Notes: generated by a model from the letters alone, not told the origin. 64,000 nt of DNA from a candidate division WOR-3 bacterium (GCA_965648905.1 CBFGIT010000010.1:1-64000); one strand, 5' to 3'; shown: positions 15,748-24,176, counted from the stretch's first letter. Program-made: numbers and translations.

Positions 15748-17700
15748 GTGATTAGTTTGGCCGGAGTTGCGGTCGAATTCGGAACCCAGGAACTTTACAG
15801 CGACGTGAATCTGTTCGTGGGCCCGAATGACCGAATCGGGCTTGTCGGTGCAAACGGCAGCGGCAAGTCGACCATCCTGAAGATGATTGCCGGCATGCAG
15901 GAGCCGACCCGTGGGCAGATTGACATCCGCAAAGGCACACGCATCGCCTATCTTGCCCAGACTGGGGCCGTGGTCGGGGACCGGACCGTACTTGAGGAGG
16001 CTCTGTCCGCATTCTCTCATCTTGATGAGATTCACTCAGAGATGGTCGAGCTTGAACACCGGATGCACGATGCCAGCATGCCCGAGCAGGAGTTGAACGC
16101 GATTCTCGCCCGGTATGCCGTGCTGCAAGGGTATTACAGCGCCGATGCCTATGACCGTGAATCGCGGGCCGAGAAGACACTCATGAGCTTGGGCTTCGCC
16201 GAGGAGGACTTTGCCAAGCCGGTTCGCCAGCAGTCGGGCGGGTTCCAGGTGCGCCTGGCCCTGGCGCGCGAGTTGCTGGAAGAGCCGGACGTGCTGCTGC
16301 TGGACGAGCCGACCAACTACCTTGACATCCGCTCGATCGAGTGGCTCCAGAGCTATCTGGCCGAGTTCTCCGGCGCGGTAGTGATGATCGCCCATGACCG
16401 ATATCTCCTGGACGCACTGGTCCAGAAGATCTGGGGCATCGAGTCGCGCAAGGTGCTCATCTACCCGGGCAACTACTCTGATTACCTGAAGGACAAAGAA
16501 CTGCGCGACGAGCGTCAGGCCAAGGACTACGAAGAGCAGCAGCAGTTCATCAAGCGCACCGAGCACTTCATCGCCAAGTTCAAGGGACGAAAGGACACGG
16601 CCAAGCGGGCAATGAGCCGACAGAAGATGCTTGACCGGCTTGAGCTGGTTGAAGCGCCCCAGACCGCGCCCGTCATCAGGATTCGCTTCCCCGAGGCCGA
16701 AGAAGTCTACGGCAAGGCATTCGAACTGAAGGGCGTGTCCAAGTCCTTTGGCCCGAAGCAGGTGCTTTCTAACGTTGACCTGGTGGTGGGCGGGGGCGAA
16801 AGAATCGGCCTGTTCGGCGCAAACGGCCAGGGCAAAACGACCCTGCTCCGGATGATTGCCGGGCAGCTTGAGCCTGATTCGGGTTCGGTCTGGTTGAGCC
16901 AGAAGAGCCAGATTGCCTACTACGAGCAGGGCGCAGAAGAGAAGATTGCCCCGGACTTGACCGTGCTTCAGGCCGCGGCCCAGTCCGGAGCCGGATTCAC
17001 CGAAAACGAGCTCAAAGGCATTCTCGGCACGTTCCTGTTCTCAGGCGATGCGGTGGAGAAGAAGGTCGGCGTGCTGTCGGGCGGTGAGCGGTCGCGCCTC
17101 GCGATTGTGCGGGCGCTGCTGACGCCGTCGAACCTGCTGATACTGGACGAGCCGACCAACCACTTGGACATCCAGTCGCGCGAGATTCTGTTCGAGGCGA
17201 TGAGCCGTTACCAGCGGACCATCGTCTTCGCCGCGCACGACCGATACATGCTCGACAAACTCGCCGACAAGACCGTGCGCGTGGAAGGCGGGCAGGCAGT
17301 GCTTTTCCCGGGCAACTACGCCTACGCATCATCGAGGGCGAAGAGCGCGAAGTCAACAGCCAACAGCCAACAGGCAGCAGCCAAGAGCCAGAAGCCAGGG
17401 GCCAAAAGTCAGGGGCCAAGAGCCAAGAGCCAAGAGCCGGAAGCCAAGGGCCAAAAGCCAAGAGCCAAGACCCCAGGTGCCAAGTCCGTGGCCCATGGTC
17501 TGAAGTCCACCGCTTCGCCTGTTGACCGCGTGGCAGAAGCGAGGCGCAGACTGGCAGAGATAGAGCGGGAGCTGCTTCAGGCCAAGGCAGCGTTCGACCT
17601 GAACCGGGCCCGGGCCCTGAACCAGGAGCGCAAGGAGCTTGAGCAGGAACTCGAGGCCCGCAAAGCCGATGAGGTCGAGTCTGGCAGGATATCCCCATGA
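15748..17700 (+). CDS. ABC-F family ATPase (tandem ABC domains, no TMD; Uup/YheS/EttA-like) with C-terminal Lys/Ser/Gln tandem-repeat linker and coiled coil
   Basis: Two Walker A (GANGSGKST; GANGQGKTT), two ABC signatures (LSGGFQ; LSGGERSRL), two Walker B (LLLDEPTN; LILDEPTN). Confidence 0.85.
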   Translation: MISLAGVAVEFGTQELYSDVNLFVGPNDRIGLVGANGSGKSTILKMIAGMQEPTRGQIDIRKGTRIAYLAQTGAVVGDRTVLEEALSAFSHLDEIHSEMVELEHRMHDASMPEQELNAILARYAVLQGYYSADAYDRESRAEKTLMSLGFAEEDFAKPVRQQSGGFQVRLALARELLEEPDVLLLDEPTNYLDIRSIEWLQSYLAEFSGAVVMIAHDRYLLDALVQKIWGIESRKVLIYPGNYSDYLKDKELRDERQAKDYEEQQQFIKRTEHFIAKFKGRKDTAKRAMSRQKMLDRLELVEAPQTAPVIRIRFPEAEEVYGKAFELKGVSKSFGPKQVLSNVDLVVGGGERIGLFGANGQGKTTLLRMIAGQLEPDSGSVWLSQKSQIAYYEQGAEEKIAPDLTVLQAAAQSGAGFTENELKGILGTFLFSGDAVEKKVGVLSGGERSRLAIVRALLTPSNLLILDEPTNHLDIQSREILFEAMSRYQRTIVFAAHDRYMLDKLADKTVRVEGGQAVLFPGNYAYASSRAKSAKSTANSQQAAAKSQKPGAKSQGPRAKSQEPEAKGQKPRAKTPGAKSVAHGLKSTASPVDRVAEARRRLAEIERELLQAKAAFDLNRARALNQERKELEQELEARKADEVESGRISP

Positions 17701-18107
17701 AGTTCGGGGTCAGCTCGGACAAAGAGGCGGCTCTGGCCGCGCGGCTTGCGGCACTGGGCGTTGATGAATCAGACATCATGGAGAAGTTCGTCCGGGCGCG
17801 CGGGCCGGGCGGACAGAACGTAAACAAGACCTCGACCGCGGTTTACCTGAAGCATCTCCCCTCAGGCATCGAAGTGAAGATGCAGCAGGAACGGTCTCAG
17901 GCATTGAACCGGTTCCTGGCCCGGCGTGTGCTGGCCGACAAACTCGAAGCTCTGACCAGGAAGCAGCAGACCGAAGAACAGGAACGCATCGCCCGAATCC
18001 GGCGTCAGAAGCGGAGGCGCTCAAGGCGCGCGCAGCAGAAAGTACTTGCGGCCAAACGCCACCGCAGCCAAGTCAAACACGCCCGCTCAGAACCCGAGCC
18101 GGACTAG
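17697..18107 (+). CDS. arfB: Alternative ribosome-rescue factor / peptidyl-tRNA hydrolase ArfB-like (RF-1 domain protein)
   Basis: GGQ motif (RGPGGQNVNKTSTAV) plus basic C-terminal tail; ATGA overlap with ABC-F. Confidence 0.8.
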   Translation: MKFGVSSDKEAALAARLAALGVDESDIMEKFVRARGPGGQNVNKTSTAVYLKHLPSGIEVKMQQERSQALNRFLARRVLADKLEALTRKQQTEEQERIARIRRQKRRRSRRAQQKVLAAKRHRSQVKHARSEPEPD

Positions 18108-18239
18108 CCCTTCCGCCAACTGCTTGGCGCCAGCCGCCTCGTTTCGTCTCTTGACTTCGCCCGGCGGTTGGGCATATTTACGATATGGTCAGACTACGGC
18201 TGGTCGCAGCTCAAGACCGCCTGACAGCGGAAGCACACG

Positions 18240-18674
18240 ATGTCCGCGAATAGCGCCGAAGCCGACAAGAGCCAGGAGCGTTTCTATGACGCCCTGAAGG
18301 AGCTGTTCGTCGGCGCGAAGGTCGAGGGCGAGTCGGGCTTCATCAACCTGATGCGCATCAAGTCGCGCTACTACACCGACGGCGTGTTCCCCAGGCTCCA
18401 GAAGGACATCGAGGCCGCGCTCAAGTCGCTGGGACATGACCCGAATGTCCGACATTCGGGATCGTGTCCCGAAAGCGCCTCATTCCGGCAGGAGCTGTTC
18501 GACAAGCTCTACGACTTCTTCCACCGCTACTTCAGCCCGAGCGGGTCAATCTACTTCCAGCACACGCCGTCCCACAAGAACATCTACGAGAAGGTCTACA
18601 CCGACGACCGGGACGTAGTGCTCTTCTGGAAGACCCACGAGCGAGACGCGAGGAGAGCCTCGGTCAGAGGGTAA
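18240..18674 (+). CDS. Hypothetical protein (144 aa) at island border; same frame as the next ORF, separated by a single TAA
   Basis: ORF with lower GC3 than backbone; no recognisable domain. Confidence 0.4.
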   Translation: MSANSAEADKSQERFYDALKELFVGAKVEGESGFINLMRIKSRYYTDGVFPRLQKDIEAALKSLGHDPNVRHSGSCPESASFRQELFDKLYDFFHRYFSPSGSIYFQHTPSHKNIYEKVYTDDRDVVLFWKTHERDARRASVRG

Positions 18675-18680
18675 GACCAA

Positions 18681-20147
18681 GTGATGAACCGTCGTTCGTT
18701 CAAGACCGACGAGAGTTTCCTGGAGAAACTGGTTATCGGTGCCACCGGAGCACGCGCGGTCAGGGAAGACCTTCGCCGTCAGGGTCACGATCCAATTGTG
18801 CTTGAGCGCGGCTCGATGGACTACAAGATCTGGAAAGACATCAAGATCAAGCGGGTCCGAGTACCCGACATCCTGTGCCTGCGTTGCGCGACCCGGTTCG
18901 AGGCAAGAGCCAAGACAAGGCTGGAGATCACCGCATCGCACTCAAAGGCCGACCCGGCGCGCGGCTGGGACCAGGGACTTTCCGACAACGACATGCTGGC
19001 TCTCGCTCTGTGCAGCAAGAGTGGCCCACGGCCGGTTGACTGCGTTGCCTCGGGGTCGGTGCAGTATGTCTCGGTGAAGGCGTTGCGCCGCGCCTACGCT
19101 GACGGGAAGGTCGTAGAAGAAAAACCCAAGGGCGCGGGAGAAGGATTCGAACTCCGCGTAACCTGGCCGAGCGCAGTCGCCAGCGCCGGTGGGAACGTCG
19201 TTGAGGTGTCATCGTCTCGATTGCAGTACCGGCGTTTGAGCGACGGTCGTACCATTTCACTCAAGCTCGCCCGAGACCCTATCCCCCTCAAGCCGCTGGT
19301 CAAGGTCGGTGACGATGTGCGGGCGAGCCAAGTCATTGCCTCGGTCGTTCCAGTGTCAACATCCTTTGTCTGCCCCGCGGGTGCAACTGCCGGCACCTTT
19401 GCGAAGATGCTCGCGTCGTCCTCTGTTGCCGAACGCTACGCCGCGGCAAAGGCACTCGGTCACTTCAAGGGCGACAAGACCATCGCCCTGCTCACCAGGC
19501 GCTTGAGCGACGACAAGGAACACATCTACGTCCGGCTAGAGGCTGCGGCCAGTCTTGTCGTACTCGGGCACGAGTCCGGGATGGACTTTATCCGCGCAGT
19601 CCTCCAGGGTGAGTACTTCGAGCACCGGCTTGAGGCCGTCATCATTCTTGGTGAGGTGAAGACCGAGCAGGCAAGAGCCTTGCTCGCTGACGTTCTATTG
19701 GATGCGGAACAGCCGCCGGAGATAAGAGCCGGCGCGGCTTGGGCGCTCGGGGAGTTGGGCCAGGCGAAAAGCACGGACGCTCTGGTGCAGGCGTTCACGG
19801 AAATCGCCGAACCCATCCGCATCGAGGCCGCCCGGGCACTGCGCAAGATAATCGCCGGCACGAAGCTGCAGGCGGCAGCCCTGCTGCCTGACAGCCTTGA
19901 GGACCAAAGGGCCGGAATCGCCTGGGCACTGAGCAGGTCGGGTCGAATTGACGTGGACGAACTCGTCGCCGCCCTGAAGAACGACGACACCCGCCGTTGG
20001 GTTGCCTACGTGCTCGGAACTCAGGACGAGAGAGCCTTCATCGGCAGGCTCGAACAACTGCGCCGAGTTGACCCGGAGGTCTACTTCGCGGTGACGGTTC
20101 TCTGGCGGGTGATGTCCAGTTGGGTGTACAAGCTTGAGGAGTACTGA
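18681..20147 (+). CDS. Two-domain protein: unassigned N-terminal domain (about 240 aa) plus C-terminal PBS-lyase-type HEAT repeats
   Basis: C-terminal repeated AAxALG..gd..a...L...L.D....VR..Aa.AL units (HEAT/PBS lyase-like); N-terminus has no obvious family; GTG-ATG start 6 nt after upstream TAA. Confidence 0.6.
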   Translation: MMNRRSFKTDESFLEKLVIGATGARAVREDLRRQGHDPIVLERGSMDYKIWKDIKIKRVRVPDILCLRCATRFEARAKTRLEITASHSKADPARGWDQGLSDNDMLALALCSKSGPRPVDCVASGSVQYVSVKALRRAYADGKVVEEKPKGAGEGFELRVTWPSAVASAGGNVVEVSSSRLQYRRLSDGRTISLKLARDPIPLKPLVKVGDDVRASQVIASVVPVSTSFVCPAGATAGTFAKMLASSSVAERYAAAKALGHFKGDKTIALLTRRLSDDKEHIYVRLEAAASLVVLGHESGMDFIRAVLQGEYFEHRLEAVIILGEVKTEQARALLADVLLDAEQPPEIRAGAAWALGELGQAKSTDALVQAFTEIAEPIRIEAARALRKIIAGTKLQAAALLPDSLEDQRAGIAWALSRSGRIDVDELVAALKNDDTRRWVAYVLGTQDERAFIGRLEQLRRVDPEVYFAVTVLWRVMSSWVYKLEEY

Positions 20148-20151
20148 GTCC

Positions 20152-21231
20152 GTGAGTCAATTGCCTGAGCCGCTCTATACAACTCAGTGGGGCAAGGCCT
20201 ACGTCGGTGACTCCCTGGCTCTACTTCCGGAACTCCCCGCGGAATCGGTGGACCTCATCGTAACCTCGCCGCCTTTCGCCCTGCAGAGAAAGAAGGAGTA
20301 CGGCAACGAAGACCAGGACGCCTACGTTGACTGGCTGCTTCAGTTCGCGGAACCTATCAAGCGCGTCCTGAAAACCACCGGCAGCTTCGTAATTGACTTG
20401 GGCGGCGCCTATCTCGCTGGACGCCCGACCCGGTCACTGCACAACTACCGTCTGCTGCTCCGATTCTGTGATGGGCATGACTTTCGCCTCGCCGAGGAGT
20501 TCTTCTGGCACAACCCGGCCAAGCTCCCGTCGCCCATCGAGTGGGTCAACAAACGCAAGCTGCGGGCCAAGGACTCAGTCGATACAATCTGGTGGCTGTC
20601 CAAGACCGACTACCCGAAGGCTGATGTCCGGAAAGTCCTTGCGCCCTATTCAGAGCGCATGAAACAACTGCTGGCCGACAGCGAGCGATTCTACACGCCC
20701 AAGAAACGTCCATCTGGGCATGACATCAGCAGCCGGTTTGCGGACAGCAACGGCGGTGCCATCCCGTCGAATCTTCTGCAGATTCCGAACACGGAAAGCA
20801 ACTCTCCCTACCTGCGCCGTTGCGCTTCCGTGGGCGCAAAGGGTCACCCTGCCCGTTTTCCTGAGAAGCTGCCAGCCTTCTTCATACAGTTCTTGACCGA
20901 CCCCGGCGACTTGGTCCTCGACATCTTCGCCGGCTCCAACACCACCGGCGCAGCGGCTGAGCACGCAGGCAGAAACTGGCTCGCCTTCGAGAAAGACCGG
21001 ACGTACCTGGCAGCGTCTGCGTTCCGATTCCTCGACACCGACGATCCTGACGAGCTTGCCGACCTCTGGCGAACGACGACATCACTGGATGAGACGGTTG
21101 AGATACGTCCGCGGCAAGCCGAGCTGCTGATGCGAGACGCAGCCAGTGACGGCGCTGCAACGCACGGCGAACTGAAGATGGCGCGCCGGAAGTCGCGCCC
21201 TTCTCATGATAGGCGAAGGAGCGTGCGCTGA
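20152..21231 (+). CDS. DNA methyltransferase, beta-class N4-cytosine/N6-adenine family (N6_N4_Mtase-like), orphan or partner of unknown restriction enzyme
   Basis: Motif IV DLIVTSPPF precedes motif I VLDIFAGSNTTGAAAE (circularly permuted beta-class order); RBS gaggag upstream of GTG 20152 (ORF track extends to TTG 20134); last about 60 aa Arg-rich and non-conserved-looking. Confidence 0.85.
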   Translation: MSQLPEPLYTTQWGKAYVGDSLALLPELPAESVDLIVTSPPFALQRKKEYGNEDQDAYVDWLLQFAEPIKRVLKTTGSFVIDLGGAYLAGRPTRSLHNYRLLLRFCDGHDFRLAEEFFWHNPAKLPSPIEWVNKRKLRAKDSVDTIWWLSKTDYPKADVRKVLAPYSERMKQLLADSERFYTPKKRPSGHDISSRFADSNGGAIPSNLLQIPNTESNSPYLRRCASVGAKGHPARFPEKLPAFFIQFLTDPGDLVLDIFAGSNTTGAAAEHAGRNWLAFEKDRTYLAASAFRFLDTDDPDELADLWRTTTSLDETVEIRPRQAELLMRDAASDGAATHGELKMARRKSRPSHDRRRSVR

Positions 21232-21465
21232 AGATCGACCTGCCCGAGACGCTCTCGAACCTGACCGGCAAGCGCATCCGCCGCATCCTGCCGGGATCGG
21301 TCGAGTTCGAAGACGGCACGGTCATCGACCTGACCAAACTAGGTTTCGAGTTCTTCAAGCTCATCAAGCCGATGGTGTGGTGGTGAAGGTGGTCGGCGCT
21401 GATCAGCCATCTAGCCCGCAGCACGGGCCATCGGTATCCCTGAAGGTTGACTGACAAAGGAGGAA

Positions 21466-22014
21466 GTGGCAATGCAGAAAGGCGAAAATGGCTTCGCGTG
21501 TTTCCTACTGAGCCTGCTGACGCTGGGAATAATCCGATTCTTCAGCGTCCCCCAAGGATACGTTAGATTCGTTACGGCCTTCGGCAAGTTTCGCAGGAAA
21601 TGCGAACCCGGCCTAGGCCACTGTGTTTCATTCTTGGGTCTATACCAGAAGCCCACACGGCTCGTGCCCATCATGGAGCAGGTACGCGACTATCCCAAGG
21701 AAAGCGTATTCACTCGCGATGGCGTTAAGTGCAGGATTGACTCGGTTGTGTTCTTCACCATCAAAGACTCCTTCAAGGCTGTCTTCGAGGTTGAGGACCA
21801 TGAGGCGGCGATCTTCAGCCTTGTACGCGCCACCCTGCGCAATGAGTGTGGGAACCTCGCGGCCCGTGAACTTCTGTCGGGTAGGGAGAGACTGGCAGAT
21901 AGACTTCGGAGTCAGCTCGACAAAGACACTGAGCCGTGGGGCATTTCCGTCAGGCTGGTTGAGATTACCGACATAGCCATGACGGTCAACGACAAAGAGG
22001 AGGTGCTAACATGA
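21466..22014 (+). CDS. SPFH/band-7 (stomatin/prohibitin-like) membrane protein
   Basis: N-terminal TM helix then SPFH domain (VPQGYVRFVTAFGKFRRKCEPGLGHCVSFLG...TRDGVKCRIDSVVFFTIKD...WGISVRLVEITDI). Confidence 0.75.
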   Translation: MAMQKGENGFACFLLSLLTLGIIRFFSVPQGYVRFVTAFGKFRRKCEPGLGHCVSFLGLYQKPTRLVPIMEQVRDYPKESVFTRDGVKCRIDSVVFFTIKDSFKAVFEVEDHEAAIFSLVRATLRNECGNLAARELLSGRERLADRLRSQLDKDTEPWGISVRLVEITDIAMTVNDKEEVLT

Positions 22015-22451
22015 TGTCCGTGAAAGCTCTTGATGAGGATGTCCGTCCCGTAGTAGACGAACGCGAGCTGCTGCAGTTCGAGGCCGAGAACGTACGGACC
22101 TTCTATTCCTTGACGGCCCCGGCCCGCAAGGAGTACACGATCCAGATGGCCGAGGCGGAGGCGGAGAGAATACGTATCGTGCGGAAAGCGCAAGCCGAGG
22201 GCATACTCGCCATCCGCAAGGCGGAGGCAGAAGGCTACAAGCTAATGGGCGAGGCCCTCGCGCAGTGCGGACAGGCCGAACAAGTGCTTAAGCTCGCAGG
22301 GCTCGTGGCACTGCAGGACGTCGCGCGGTCGCTGGCAAACGGCACAGCGACGAAGATACTGCTTCCTCACGGTATGGGTGACATTTTCTCGCTTGTTGCA
22401 GGTTGGAAGGAAATCCTGGCGTCGGCCTCACCCACTGCGAGTCCGGACTGA
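22011..22451 (+). CDS. Coiled-coil protein resembling the C-terminal AERE/AEGE helical region of band-7 proteins; ATGA-coupled to upstream SPFH gene
   Basis: QMAEAEAERIRIVRKAQAEGILAIRKAEAEGYKLMGEA resembles post-SPFH helical region; 4-nt ATGA overlap suggests translational coupling rather than random frameshift. Confidence 0.5.
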   Translation: MMSVKALDEDVRPVVDERELLQFEAENVRTFYSLTAPARKEYTIQMAEAEAERIRIVRKAQAEGILAIRKAEAEGYKLMGEALAQCGQAEQVLKLAGLVALQDVARSLANGTATKILLPHGMGDIFSLVAGWKEILASASPTASPD

Positions 22452-22524
22452 TGAGAACAGCGCCTCAACCCTGCGATAGCCCAGACCGGGGAGTTGTGCG
22501 TTTCACAGAGAGGAGGTGATCCCG

Positions 22525-22929
22525 ATGGCCACCAAGAAGTGTCCGACATGCCCATTCAGCTACGACACTGACAAGAAGGACTCCTACCAAGAGTGCTCTG
22601 AGTGCGGGGCTCGTTTCTGCAACAGCTGCGCCGGCAGACACGGCTGGAAGTGCCCCGTATGCAAGAGCCCATTTGGTCGACTCGAGCACCCGCCAGGCTG
22701 CTCTCGAAGGACGAACCGACTGCGAGGGTTACCCGTCTCCTCCGCTGAGGGGATAGAAGCTCATGGCCCTAACGCTCCTCCAAGACATGGTCGAGGGCAG
22801 GCCCTATCAGTCCCTTCCGGCCAACTGGAGTTCGTTCGACCTGAAGAGCTTCTCGCGGCAGAAGCAGCTTTGGGGCTATCAGCAGCAGGCCGTCGCGTCG
22901 GCAGTGGTCGCGTTGTGGAAGTACTATGA
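22525..22929 (+). CDS. Small 8-cysteine zinc-ribbon protein (functional part about first 55 aa; long 3' tail probably not real)
   Basis: AGGAGG RBS 7 nt upstream of ATG 22525; CPTC-x11-CSEC-x5-CNSC-x7-CPVC; tail is low-complexity and overlaps next ORF. Confidence 0.45.
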   Translation: MATKKCPTCPFSYDTDKKDSYQECSECGARFCNSCAGRHGWKCPVCKSPFGRLEHPPGCSRRTNRLRGLPVSSAEGIEAHGPNAPPRHGRGQALSVPSGQLEFVRPEELLAAEAALGLSAAGRRVGSGRVVEVL

Positions 22930-23452
22930 GGACTTCGGCGACTACCAGCGCGGCGAGAGCTTGGACGTGAACCTGGAGCGGAAGCGGCGGTTCTGTCTGT
23001 GGTATCAGGATAACGAACTGCCGCAGGGGATAAACCTGACGCTGTCGCGGCTCGGGCGGCACGTGCGGATGCTCGACGACTACTACGACACGGCGGCGGG
23101 CCTGCCTGCCGCGACGCGGAATGCGGCGCAGGCAGGCGAGATTCCGTTTGAGAGCATCGTCAATCGGATGTGCTTCTGGATGGCAACCGGTTCCGGCAAG
23201 ACGTTGGTGCTGGTCAAACTCGTCGAGGTTCTGCGCGGGTTGATTCTGGCCGGTGAGATTCCGCCGAATGACATCCTGGTGCTGACGCATCGGGAAGACC
23301 TGATTGAGCAGCTCAAGCGCCACGTTCAGGAGTTCAACTCCTCGCGCAATGACCTGTACATCCGACTGCGGGAACTGAAGGAATACGCCGAGGCGAAGTG
23401 GGAGAATCCAACCGCTTCGCGGCCAGGGCAAAGGTCAAGGCGAGAGGAATGA
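22763..23452 (+). pseudogene. Truncated SF2 helicase / type III res-like ATPase N-terminal fragment (motif I and Ia only)
   Basis: Q-motif-like GYQQQAV, Walker A MATGSGKTLVLV, motif Ia ILVLTHREDLIEQ; ORF ends before DEAH box; downstream about 700 bp lacks ORFs. Confidence 0.55.
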
Positions 23453-24102
23453 CCAATGACCAAGTCCTAATGTCCCGGCAAGGCCCAGGCGCCAATAGCG
23501 AGCAGCGGGCTGCGCCGCGAATGGCCGGGTTGCGGTGCGTCGGTTGCAGGCGGTGTCTGCAGGGACGGTCACTTTGGCAGGCTTCGGGTTTGGCCACGAG
23601 CATGGCTCTTGCCTGGGCTCTGAGCAATGCCGGTGGTTGGGCCTCTGGAAATGCCTATGGTCATGCCCTTTGAAGTGCCGGCGGTCGTGCCGGGCAGCGT
23701 GACGCCTGAAATCACGGCTGTCGTGCCGGTTCGCGCGACGAGGGTTGTGCCAGCCGCAATTGAGAGCGAGTCGCCACCTGGTTGTACGTCAGCAATCCCG
23801 CCCGACATGTCTTGGAGATTGCCGAGACAGTCGAAGTCGCCAGTAACGCTGGTCGCGCCAACAGAAGTGACAATAGGAATGCATCGGGGGACGGTGTACC
23901 GGGCGTGCCAGAGTCAGGTTTGTCGGCGACGGGTTGTGCGTGCAACTCTCTAAGGACAATGGCGTTAGCCGCAGTCTGTTGACCGGCTGGCGCTGGGTCG
24001 CTTGATTAAGCGACATGTCGGCTTCTGGGTCTTGGGCTGTACGCGCGGCTTTCACTTAGGTCGAATATGCTTGTCAGTCTGAACTCGAGCGGCCGCTTGT
24101 TC

Positions 24103-24130
24103 TTGACTTCGGGCCAGGGGGGGGTATTAT
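24103..24130 (+). promoter_or_regulatory. Sigma70-like promoter (ttgact-16-tattat) for lipoprotein gene
   Basis: ttgact at 24103-24108, 16-nt spacer, tattat at 24125-24130, about 45 nt upstream of ATG 24177. Confidence 0.45.
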
Positions 24131-24176
24131 CGGGCAAGTTCCTCAAGTACAAAGAGTCTTAAAAGGAGACGCATAG

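Follow-up and report, generated by a model that had tools for sequence, protein, structure and literature searches.

A HEAT-repeat protein as the probable restriction endonuclease partner of an M.PvuII-like methyltransferase in an acquired genomic island

The PvuII restriction-modification (R-M) system of plasmid pPvu1 comprises the endonuclease R.PvuII, a one-domain protein of 157 aa, the methyltransferase (MTase) M.PvuII and the protein C.PvuII, with the HTH (C) and R genes divergent from M. More elaborate architectures are found among the Type IIE/IIF enzymes EcoRII, NaeI and SgrAI, in which a PD-(D/E)xK catalytic domain is accompanied by regulating or oligomerising extra domains and the MTase is a separate protein. 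To our knowledge, no multi-domain Type II enzyme possesses a HEAT/PBS-lyase-type solenoid or a barrel-sandwich hybrid domain, and none was found in the literature searched. The PBS-lyase-type HEAT proteins (E. coli YibA, CpcE/F and the alphaRep designs) are without a nuclease domain or R-M association, and the anti-phage defence protein DSR2 is a Sir2 effector joined to a HEAT-like sensor (PMC11263360).

In the window, the 64,000-nucleotide stretch of DNA from a candidate division WOR-3 bacterium analysed here, a gene pair at 18681-21231 likely constitutes a Type II-like R-M cassette whose HEAT protein would cut CAGCTG. The MTase of this pair is homologous to M.PvuII, whereas in its 488-aa, three-domain partner no relation to the sequence of R.PvuII can be detected (hhalign probability 0.15%), and the two genes are co-directional, R then M, without a C protein. 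Such an order without a controller is workable, though it sits less easily with the preferred explanation in leaving the establishment in a new host unexplained. Like the Type IIE/IIF enzymes, the partner combines a predicted PD-(D/E)xK domain with accessory domains and leaves methylation to a separate protein. It resembles DSR2 in that an enzymatic effector is fused to HEAT repeats within a defence setting, but the effector of DSR2 is an NADase instead of a nuclease and has no MTase partner; the analogy concerns only what a HEAT domain is capable of.

The pair lies in an island (Table 1) for which a preliminary description had proposed an acquired and partly decayed origin, and all the ORFs listed there are present on the + strand with the coordinates given. 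In three more distant relatives (loci L088, L089 and L090) arfB is followed directly by the lipoprotein gene after a gap of ~130-160 bp, in L090 also with ABC-F upstream of arfB, and in an intergenic alignment all three share the lipoprotein promoter (TTGACT..TATTAT, 24103-24130) with the window. On account of this adjacency and the retained promoter, there is support for reading the region between arfB and the lipoprotein gene as an insertion that was acquired horizontally and has partly decayed. Flanking repeats, an integrase, a tRNA and an Rfam match were looked for in the island and not found. The compositional argument made earlier is weak. A shift in codon usage with A/T-ending codons had been claimed for the MTase, but the GC3 of the MTase (0.72) and HEAT (0.74) genes equals that of the flanks (0.70-0.77), and values for the 144-aa ORF and the helicase stump are 0.87 and 0.80; only the SPFH gene (0.67) and the Zn-ribbon ORF (0.58) fall below. 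GC in 1-kb steps dips only to 0.58-0.60 versus 0.60-0.65, and the tetranucleotide deviation at 17001-23000 is mild (z = 2.2, rank 2 of 59 windows).

Table 1. Positions of the island and its features in the window.
Feature	Position	Strand	Basis
Inserted island, arfB stop codon to conserved GyrI-like lipoprotein promoter	18108-24090	.	Synteny and intergenic alignment
Type III Mod MTase remnant, N-terminal ~134 aa only (144-aa ORF)	18240-18674	+	PADLOC MTase_III
Candidate restriction endonuclease, 488 aa, three predicted domains	18681-20147	+	AF2, Pfam, conservation
Predicted PD-(D/E)xK nuclease domain, aa ~1-145	18681-19115	+	AF2 model, fold search
Predicted barrel-sandwich hybrid domain (SBHM), aa ~146-235	19116-19385	+	AF2 model
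HEAT-repeat solenoid, aa ~236-488	19386-20147	+	Pfam HEAT_2, AF2 model
M.PvuII-like N4-cytosine DNA MTase, beta class	20134-21231	+	PDB 1boo, PADLOC, Pfam
SPFH/Band_7 short protein	21466-22014	+	Pfam Band_7 1.1e-23
Coiled-coil/flotillin-C-like partner, 146 aa	22011-22451	+	ATGA overlap with SPFH gene
ORF with 8-Cys zinc ribbon in first ~55 codons	22516-22929	+	Weak IBR_1 similarity
ResIII/SF2 helicase N-terminal stump, Type III Res/DEAD-box family, ~213 aa homology	22763-23452	+	Pfam
Unrecognisable DNA (debris), helicase stump to lipoprotein promoter	23453-24090	.	No similarity

The MTase matches M.PvuII (PDB 1boo, 3.6e-129); the two are 60% identical over 303 aa, a figure that rises to 67% in the middle third. 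It also matches PADLOC MTase_II (PDLC03323, 5e-147) and Pfam N6_N4_Mtase (5.8e-41). Its translation contains the SAM-binding motif I (DIFAGSNTTG) and the catalytic motif IV (TSPPF) of a DNA MTase in beta-class order, and the likely true start is the GTG at 20152, with the Shine-Dalgarno sequence GAGGAG 9 nt upstream, giving 359 aa. The earlier assignment to the beta-class N4/N6 MTases stands; judged by sequence, however, the enzyme is a close homolog of M.PvuII and not an anonymous member of that class, and because of this close homology its target can be predicted as CAGCTG.

Directly downstream of the HEAT gene, with an overlap or a gap of <30 bp, an M.PvuII-like MTase gene was present in 78 of the 83 fetched loci; in the remaining five, contig ends cut off the downstream DNA. 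The same order is seen in L100, with a 33%-identical HEAT protein, and in two IMG/VR contigs, and the pairing holds in 81 of 81 related loci that include downstream DNA and come from many phyla of bacteria and archaea. Pairwise distances of the HEAT proteins and MTases co-vary (Mantel r = 0.83, p = 0.001; 69 loci), the flanking genes differ everywhere, and a search of 78 loci for a third conserved ORF up to 3 kb away found none. This distribution is typical of R-M cassettes, and the two genes of the cassette would be transferred together in its horizontal spread among bacteria and archaea. Within the island only this pair is a system, conserved, R-M-like and made of two genes, which upholds the earlier choice of the same intact core as an undescribed R-M-like system; a literature search for a previous description of the pair found none.

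The 488-aa protein, whose family is labelled by NCBI and JGI only as ‘HEAT repeat domain-containing protein’, is intact, and its HEAT_2 repeats are confined to the C-terminal half (Pfam, 5.9e-21), as first observed. The AF2 model has a pLDDT of 89 for the full-length protein and 84 for the N-terminal domain. In the fold search the HEAT part resembles YibA, alphaRep and CpcE/F, and the first ~140 aa, which had been left unassigned, resemble a PD-(D/E)xK nuclease. In the N-terminal model, both the fold and the succession of its elements fit the alpha-beta-beta-beta-alpha-beta core, with P-D63 preceding strand 64-66 and E74-A-R76-A-K78 on strand 72-78. Among 205 homologs (26-91% identity) D63, E74 and K78 are 100% invariant and residue 42 is E or D, while residue 76, the ‘K’ position of the (D/E)xK motif, is R in 197 and K in eight, with the invariant K78 two residues on. 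That the canonical Lys is an Arg in most members is at odds with the reading that we prefer. A search for a sequence-level match to any nuclease family found none, and identity to the minimal PD-(D/E)xK nucleases Hjc (the archaeal Holliday-junction resolvase), I-Ssp6803I and D212 is only 7-17%. Unlike these, the HEAT protein carries SBHM and HEAT domains besides the predicted nuclease domain and has an MTase encoded next to it; the equivalent of the Hjc helix-1 Glu (E15) is not conserved in the family, whereas E40 and E42 after strand 1 are. As in a Type II R-M system, the MTase gene has beside it a co-inherited gene with a predicted endonuclease fold and conserved putative catalytic residues.

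CAGCTG occurs twice in the window (one site, at 22623, lies inside the Zn-ribbon ORF) against 22.4 expected (Poisson P = 5e-8), a ratio of 0.09 and the strongest depletion seen, and its one-mismatch neighbours are not depleted. When 62 carrier loci are pooled (1.0 Mb; 66 sites versus 265 expected), no other of the 64 hexamer palindromes is as depleted as CAGCTG, which is absent from 41 of these loci; in 28 of 49 loci it is among the three most depleted palindromes. Three carriers (L039, L062 and L080) showed no depletion, and a small control set of other loci was also somewhat depleted (11 observed, 22 expected). We count the avoidance, as a selection footprint of a CAGCTG-specific endonuclease, in favour of a restriction cassette.

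We propose that the MTase most likely places N4-methylcytosine in CAGCTG, so protecting the host chromosome, and that the 488-aa protein would be its cognate endonuclease. The PD-(D/E)xK domain, with D63 and E74-x-R76-x-K78 as putative catalytic residues and E42 as a further conserved acidic residue, would bind and cut unmethylated CAGCTG together with the barrel-sandwich hybrid domain; both are basic (pI ~9.4 family-wide). Since the site is palindromic, the protein presumably acts as a homodimer. For the acidic HEAT solenoid (pI ~5.1) DNA binding is unlikely, and oligomerisation or regulation of the nuclease is more probable; such regulation could replace the timing circuit that the C protein provides in classical PvuII systems and that is missing here. 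The HEAT protein is probably a Type II restriction enzyme of new architecture and a non-homologous isoschizomer of PvuII, and the HEAT-fused candidate nucleases most likely form a new family of restriction enzymes that is widespread in bacteria and archaea.

Could the HEAT solenoid instead be a sensor? It would then recognise a phage protein, as in DSR2, where HEAT-repeat sensor domains are known (PMC11263360), and free an inhibited nuclease that degrades DNA in an abortive-infection-like manner, with the MTase merely limiting self-damage and restriction being conditional rather than constitutive. The large, strongly conserved and acidic HEAT domain does look more like a protein-binding or autoinhibitory module than a DNA binder, and a C protein or other timing device is absent. 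We nevertheless consider this arrangement unlikely, because the strict pairing with one MTase family (26-91% identity) and the strong CAGCTG-specific avoidance are what constitutive sequence-specific restriction predicts. Moreover, sensors of phage proteins are typically hypervariable, whereas the HEAT domain varies little (69% mean column identity), like a housekeeping interaction surface. Still less probable is that the HEAT protein is no nuclease but the scaffold or chaperone partner of an orphan or regulatory m4C MTase, its PD-(D/E)xK-like fold being catalytically dead or otherwise used, e.g. for DNA binding; the failure to match a nuclease family by sequence, the Arg at the catalytic Lys position and the bare database label would fit such a role. 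A stronger contender, albeit one that we think less probable than an active cassette, is that the family is genuine R-M and that the window copy is restriction-negative, kept as a methylase with a dead partner. Position 40, next to E42, is E in 93% of the family and V in the window copy; this E40V is its sole departure from residues that at least 93% of 204 homologs share, relatives 85-91% identical to it retain E40, and the neighbouring island genes are wrecks, in keeping with a decayed neighbourhood. Owing to V40 the window copy may be attenuated or dead. On the other hand, its ORF is full length with every other conserved residue kept, E40 lies outside the canonical catalytic positions, and depletion of CAGCTG is strongest in this window, though depletion would outlast a recent inactivation.

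It is very improbable that the whole 6-kb island is one decaying multi-gene defence system, the extended form of the earlier proposal. Its genes are co-directional and tightly packed, and SPFH and helicase genes occur in some defence islands. Yet the SPFH gene, its partner, the Zn ribbon and the helicase stump accompany the HEAT-MTase pair in none of the 83 related loci, where the pair alone is conserved, and the SPFH pair is found by itself elsewhere. PADLOC-DB v2 gave no several-gene match to one catalogued system; its matches were MTase_II, an MTase_III fragment, generic HEAT profiles (HEAT-ARM_XIII, repeat region only) and, weakly, helicases. Rather than one system decaying, the island is a mosaic made up of three pieces without relation to one another: the Type III Mod N-terminal remnant with the HEAT-MTase pair, a split SPFH gene pair whose pairing is also conserved elsewhere, and the Zn-ribbon ORF with the helicase stump and unrecognisable DNA. 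The latter two pieces would be unrelated cargo and wreckage gathered at one insertion point.

The 144-aa ORF, in frame with the HEAT gene and with a single stop codon between them, had been marked out for a search for nuclease folds. As a nuclease candidate it was rejected, as it is the N-terminus of a Type III Mod (PADLOC MTase_III PDLC03638, 1.1e-36), its residues 11-134 covering profile positions 4-115 of 816; Pfam and NCBIfam searches gave no match and no MTase domain, and the full-length Mod of a Type III (mod-res) system is absent here. The closest relatives (L001-L004) carry a shorter Mod remnant (52-63 codons) directly 5' of the HEAT gene, with nucleotide divergence similar to that of the R and M genes, and a promoter-like site lies upstream of the ORF at 18151-18178. 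The remnant is now possibly a promoter or leader for the downstream operon; in our model the cassette of this lineage bears a type III mod stump at its 5' side that would probably supply one or the other.

The SPFH pair is intact and ATGA-coupled, as described before, but its suggested role in the HEAT-MTase core is not borne out by the related loci. The SPFH protein has many homologs of 180-182 aa, and the overlapping pair recurs, at 59-62% and 68-70% identity, in L097 and L099, where the surroundings are unrelated; the pair (21466-22451) is an independent conserved two-gene module outside the R-M cassette. The Zn-ribbon ORF resembles IBR_1 below the Pfam cut-off (3.1e-4), had no match in PADLOC or NCBIfam, and its 3' part, which overlaps the helicase stump, is probably not coding. 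The stump itself matches Pfam ResIII (2.7e-10) and SWI2_SNF2 (2.9e-6), with homologs named ‘type III restriction enzyme’ or ‘DEAD/DEAH box helicase’. Its similarity to homologs ends at nt ~23413-23431, and in tblastn with longer homologs at nt 23398-23431, which confirms a helicase cut off after motif Ia and followed by unrecognisable DNA; a full-length Res as in Type III systems, which would comprise two helicase lobes plus a nuclease domain, is absent. In the debris neither protein similarity to helicase homologs in any frame nor an Rfam match was found, and it holds a 34-nt imperfect direct repeat at 23671-23740.

We propose that the HEAT-repeat gene and the methyltransferase (MTase) gene of the island probably form a two-gene Type II restriction-modification (R-M) cassette, in which an M.PvuII-like m4C methylase is paired with a candidate endonuclease, built of PD-(D/E)xK, barrel-sandwich hybrid (SBHM) and HEAT domains, that would cut unmethylated CAGCTG. 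As a consequence, this endonuclease would be a non-homologous PvuII isoschizomer that works without a C protein. Every ORF listed in the preliminary description of the region, which had been made from the sequence alone, was confirmed on the + strand, and their positions are collected in the table.

Open reading frames of the island in window coordinates
Feature	Position	Strand	Remarks
Mod stump (144-aa ORF)	18240-18674	+	In frame with the 488-aa ORF; single stop codon between them (TAA, 18672-18674)
488-aa ORF (HEAT protein)	18681-20147	+	HEAT_2/HEAT_PBS repeats at residues ~240-460 only
N6_N4 methyltransferase (MTase)	20134-21231	+	Directly after the 488-aa ORF
Band_7/SPFH ORF	21466-22014	+	
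146-aa SPFH partner	22011-22451	+	ATGA overlap with the SPFH ORF
Zn-ribbon ORF	from 22516	+	Eight cysteines within the first ~55 codons
ResIII/SF2 helicase fragment	22763-23452	+	

The 488-aa protein belongs to a large family of conserved length with 1597 matches, the best 120 of which share 52-91% identity over 89-100% of the length. When the N-terminal 240 aa were searched against a library of 1.84 billion proteins, 347 representatives (one per 50%-identity cluster) matched, spread over many phyla of bacteria and archaea; among the matches listed the full-length ones mostly have ~470-530 aa. A genome scan for the whole protein gave 80 loci. Bacterial carriers are found in Verrucomicrobiota, Nitrospirota, Chloroflexota, Cyanobacteria, Bacteroidota, Planctomycetota, Desulfobacterota, Bacillota and Actinomycetota, and archaeal carriers in Methanothrix, Methanophagales, Methanoperedens, Thermococci and Bathyarchaeota. 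In 78 of 83 loci the gene directly after the HEAT gene, with an overlap or a gap of <30 bp, encodes an MTase homolog 60-97% identical to that of the window; the remaining five are cut by contig ends. The same adjacency is seen at L100, whose HEAT protein is 33% identical. Clustering of all ORFs within 3 kb revealed no third conserved gene or controller, and the flanks differ everywhere. Moreover, the two proteins show correlated pairwise distances (Mantel r = 0.83, p = 0.001, 69 loci), with faster evolution in the HEAT protein (mean distance 0.46 vs 0.30 for the MTase). The HEAT protein had no match in plasmid and cultured-phage collections. Two IMG/VR contigs classed as viral carry the cassette (L101, 8001-10330, and L102, 8001-10348; HEAT-protein identity 42-47%).

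The MTase, METHYLTRANSFERASE, is 60% identical to M.PvuII (PDB-code: 1boo) over 303 aa (3.6e-129), and 67% identical in the central third. A PADLOC model for Type II MTases is also matched over its entire length (5e-147). At such levels of identity specificity is usually conserved, and the predicted product is N4-methylcytosine in CAGCTG. The probable start codon is the GTG at 20152, preceded by GAGGAG 9 nt upstream, which results in a protein of 359 aa, like that of the related locus L001. In classical M.PvuII relatives on plasmids, including pPvu1, M is divergent from a small R gene and an HTH controller, whereas the window cassette does not have this layout.

CAGCTG occurs twice in the window (22623 and 58149), compared to the 22.4 sites that a maximal-order Markov model predicts (ratio 0.09, Poisson P = 5e-8), while its one-mismatch neighbours are at or above expectation. 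In the pooled carrier loci of at least 8 kb (62 loci, 1.01 Mb), we counted 66 sites vs 265 expected (ratio 0.25), and none of the 64 hexamer palindromes is depleted more strongly than CAGCTG; 41 of the 62 loci have no site at all. In 28 of the 49 loci with sufficient expectation it belongs to the top three palindromes by depletion. A small and imperfect control set (96 kb, partly host relatives) gave a ratio of 0.5. Three carriers show no avoidance, namely L039 (Pleurocapsa minor, 18 observed vs 24.8 expected), L062 (Ktedonobacterales, 9 vs 9.9) and L080 (Bathyarchaeota, 6 vs 6.1), and these may be recent acquisitions or inactive copies. Other palindromes are also rare in the window (GGCGCC 18 vs 39, AGCGCT 11 vs 24.5, GAGCTC 19 vs 35 and TTGCAA 0 vs 3.6), which hints at other restriction systems, past or present, in this genome.

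The AlphaFold2 models of the 488-aa protein are confident, both at full length (pLDDT 89) and for the N-terminal domain (pLDDT 84). Across 205 homologs (26-91% identity), Pro-62 and Asp-63 at the start of strand 2, as well as Glu-74 and Lys-78 in strand 3, are 100% invariant; position 76 is Arg in 197 and Lys in 8, and position 42 is Glu or Asp. The nuclease part has no sequence-level match to Pfam or PDB families, and a diverged R.PvuII was ruled out at the same level (hhalign probability 0.15%). Residues ~146-225 give sub-threshold Pfam matches to RnfC_N and Biotin_lipoyl, which are of the barrel-sandwich type. Throughout the family, charge separates the basic nuclease and SBHM domains (median pI 9.4) from an acidic HEAT domain (pI 5.1, net charge -9). 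This charge distribution argues for DNA binding by the N-terminal half and for a protein-protein or regulatory role of the HEAT solenoid; a HEAT domain reading DNA in the manner of AlkD or TALE is disfavoured because of its acidity. Cleavage by the 488-aa protein, its specificity, its dimerisation and what its HEAT domain does are all inferred. Codon 40 (18798-18800) encodes Val in the window and Glu in 190 of 204 homologs, including those with 85-91% identity; the change (PIELERGS to PIVLERGS) adjoins the conserved Glu-42 and is the sole departure of the window protein from residues conserved in at least 93% of homologs. The window copy of the nuclease may thus be attenuated or inactive through E40V.

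Could the HEAT protein instead be a non-catalytic partner of an orphan methylase? Palindrome avoidance is a classical mark of a cognate endonuclease and is not expected from an orphan methylase, and we consider this explanation very unlikely. That the whole island works as one multi-gene system is most improbable, since no other island gene was ever seen beside the HEAT-MTase pair among the 83 related loci. The preliminary description had suggested an R-M-like core, possibly including the SPFH pair; the strict linkage bears out the HEAT-MTase part of this proposal, and the SPFH pair, which never stands alongside in the related loci, has to be left out of it. A conditional, sensor-type nuclease, to which a regulatory HEAT solenoid would be suited, is unlikely. 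Fairly unlikely, too, is a combination of both principles, namely a restriction enzyme of a new class whose PD-(D/E)xK nuclease is controlled by the HEAT solenoid, so that CAGCTG restriction is conditional and the system a hybrid of classical R-M and sensor-effector immunity. The solenoid could then act as an intramolecular DNA-mimicking autoinhibitor or as an oligomerisation switch in place of C-protein timing; alternatively, it could be a receptor linking restriction to a phage or cellular signal.

For the R-M cassette that we favour, the system logic is ordinary, and what is unusual is how the enzyme is built, how widely it is distributed and that it has no controller. Public annotation names the 488-aa family "HEAT repeat domain-containing protein", and PADLOC holds no model for it. 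In the literature (REBASE being outside this scope) we found no report of a PD-(D/E)xK, barrel-sandwich hybrid and HEAT architecture for restriction enzymes, nor anything relevant on HEAT repeats combined with restriction enzymes or PvuII-type systems, or on CAGCTG m4C methylomes. If our reading is true, it adds a new and widespread family of restriction endonucleases in bacteria and archaea and a second, unrelated way to cut the PvuII site. Entries annotated by their HEAT repeats would become R-M components, and many seemingly orphan M.PvuII-like methylases would be reassigned to complete systems. How does an R-M cassette establish itself without a controller, and does the HEAT domain handle this task? 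On the practical side, the family offers candidate PvuII isoschizomers from thermophiles and archaea.

For genome annotation, it is of note that this 6-kb "island" is not one system but a mosaic at an insertion hotspot. To find relatives of the site, metagenome contigs were scanned with the downstream lipoprotein. In three of them (L088, L089 and L090) arfB lies upstream of the lipoprotein gene at a distance of ~130-160 bp; the gene order in L090 is ABC-F, arfB, lipoprotein gene. Because of this adjacency, and because the -35/-10 promoter of the lipoprotein gene (24103-24130) is kept in all three, we regard ~18108-24090 as an insertion. In the closest relatives, L085 and L086 (82% identity), other, housekeeping genes lie upstream of the lipoprotein. 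No flanking repeats, integrase, tRNA or Rfam families were found at the island. The shift in composition noted before is weak overall: GC3 is lower in the SPFH (0.67) and Zn-ribbon (0.58) ORFs and not in the remaining genes (HEAT gene 0.74, MTase 0.72, 144-aa ORF 0.87, helicase stump 0.80; flanking housekeeping genes 0.70-0.77). GC in 1-kb steps dips only slightly across the island, and tetranucleotide usage deviates mildly (z = 2.2, rank 2 of 59).

The 144-aa ORF, considered earlier as a nuclease candidate, turned out to be a Type III Mod stump, ~134 residues of it representing the Mod N-terminus (PADLOC MTase_III, 1.1e-36, profile positions 4-115 of 816). It is common to the four closest loci only (L001-L004), where it is shortened to 52-63 codons; its positions are 2269-2460 in L001, 3286-3465 in L003 and 283-426 in L004, and with the window included its lengths vary (134, 63 and 52 codons). 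In these loci it has diverged in nucleotide sequence as much as the R and M genes, with unrelated DNA further upstream; therefore, the mobile unit of this sub-lineage comprises stump, R and M. The shared unit also reaches slightly past the MTase gene, since ~155 nt 3' of its stop codon (21234-21388) are 84% identical to L001 (5048-5097 and 5693-5848), where the counterpart is broken by ~600 bp with a 164-aa ORF. The Mod stump probably supplies a promoter or leader for the R-M genes, and a promoter-like site is present at 18151-18178. The stump ends in a stop codon that overlaps the start codon of R in both L003 and L004 (CCATGCTGA), an arrangement suggestive of translational coupling, with the stump serving as a leader ORF. 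The 91%-identical relative L004 (442-2059) has a second copy of the final ~66 nt of the HEAT gene ~100 nt further downstream, together with a longer R-M gap, pointing to a small duplication or an insertion at the junction.

The helicase fragment corresponds to ~213 aa from the N-terminus of a Type III Res/DEAD-like protein. In tblastn searches with longer homologs, similarity stops at nt ~23413-23431 with no recognisable sequence beyond in any frame, in agreement with the truncation and non-coding debris described earlier. That the Mod and Res stumps are the ends of one insertion-split Type III operon is unsupported, because in L001-L004 the Mod stump travels with the cassette and the Res stump is absent. 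Two proteins from other metagenomes (P0484 and P0487, 329 and 390 aa) have first 30-45 residues that are 87% identical to the end of the helicase stump (23279-23413), pointing to recombination of the breakpoint region into other genes elsewhere. The unrecognisable DNA 3' of the stump contains a 34-nt imperfect direct repeat (23671-23740, 76% identity, 36-nt spacing) and an ORF (23627-23953) whose translation is Pro/Val-rich and of low complexity.

We rejected the idea that the SPFH ORF and its partner are a single frameshifted gene, because 180-182 aa is the length of many SPFH homologs, and such short forms are common and conserved, each with a ~155-aa partner that overlaps it. The overlapping pair recurs in the unrelated contexts of L097 and L099, with neither Zn-ribbon ORF nor helicase. 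It is a conserved two-gene module of a ~180-aa SPFH/Band_7 protein and an ATGA-overlapping, ~150-aa coiled-coil partner (window 21466-22451, L097 6001-7019, L099 4072-5084). In L097 the surroundings are mobile-element-like genes (PDDEXK_1, DUF932 and a DUF927 primase), in L099 housekeeping genes. Remoter SPFH homologs (~33% identity) are one fused protein of 315-350 aa.
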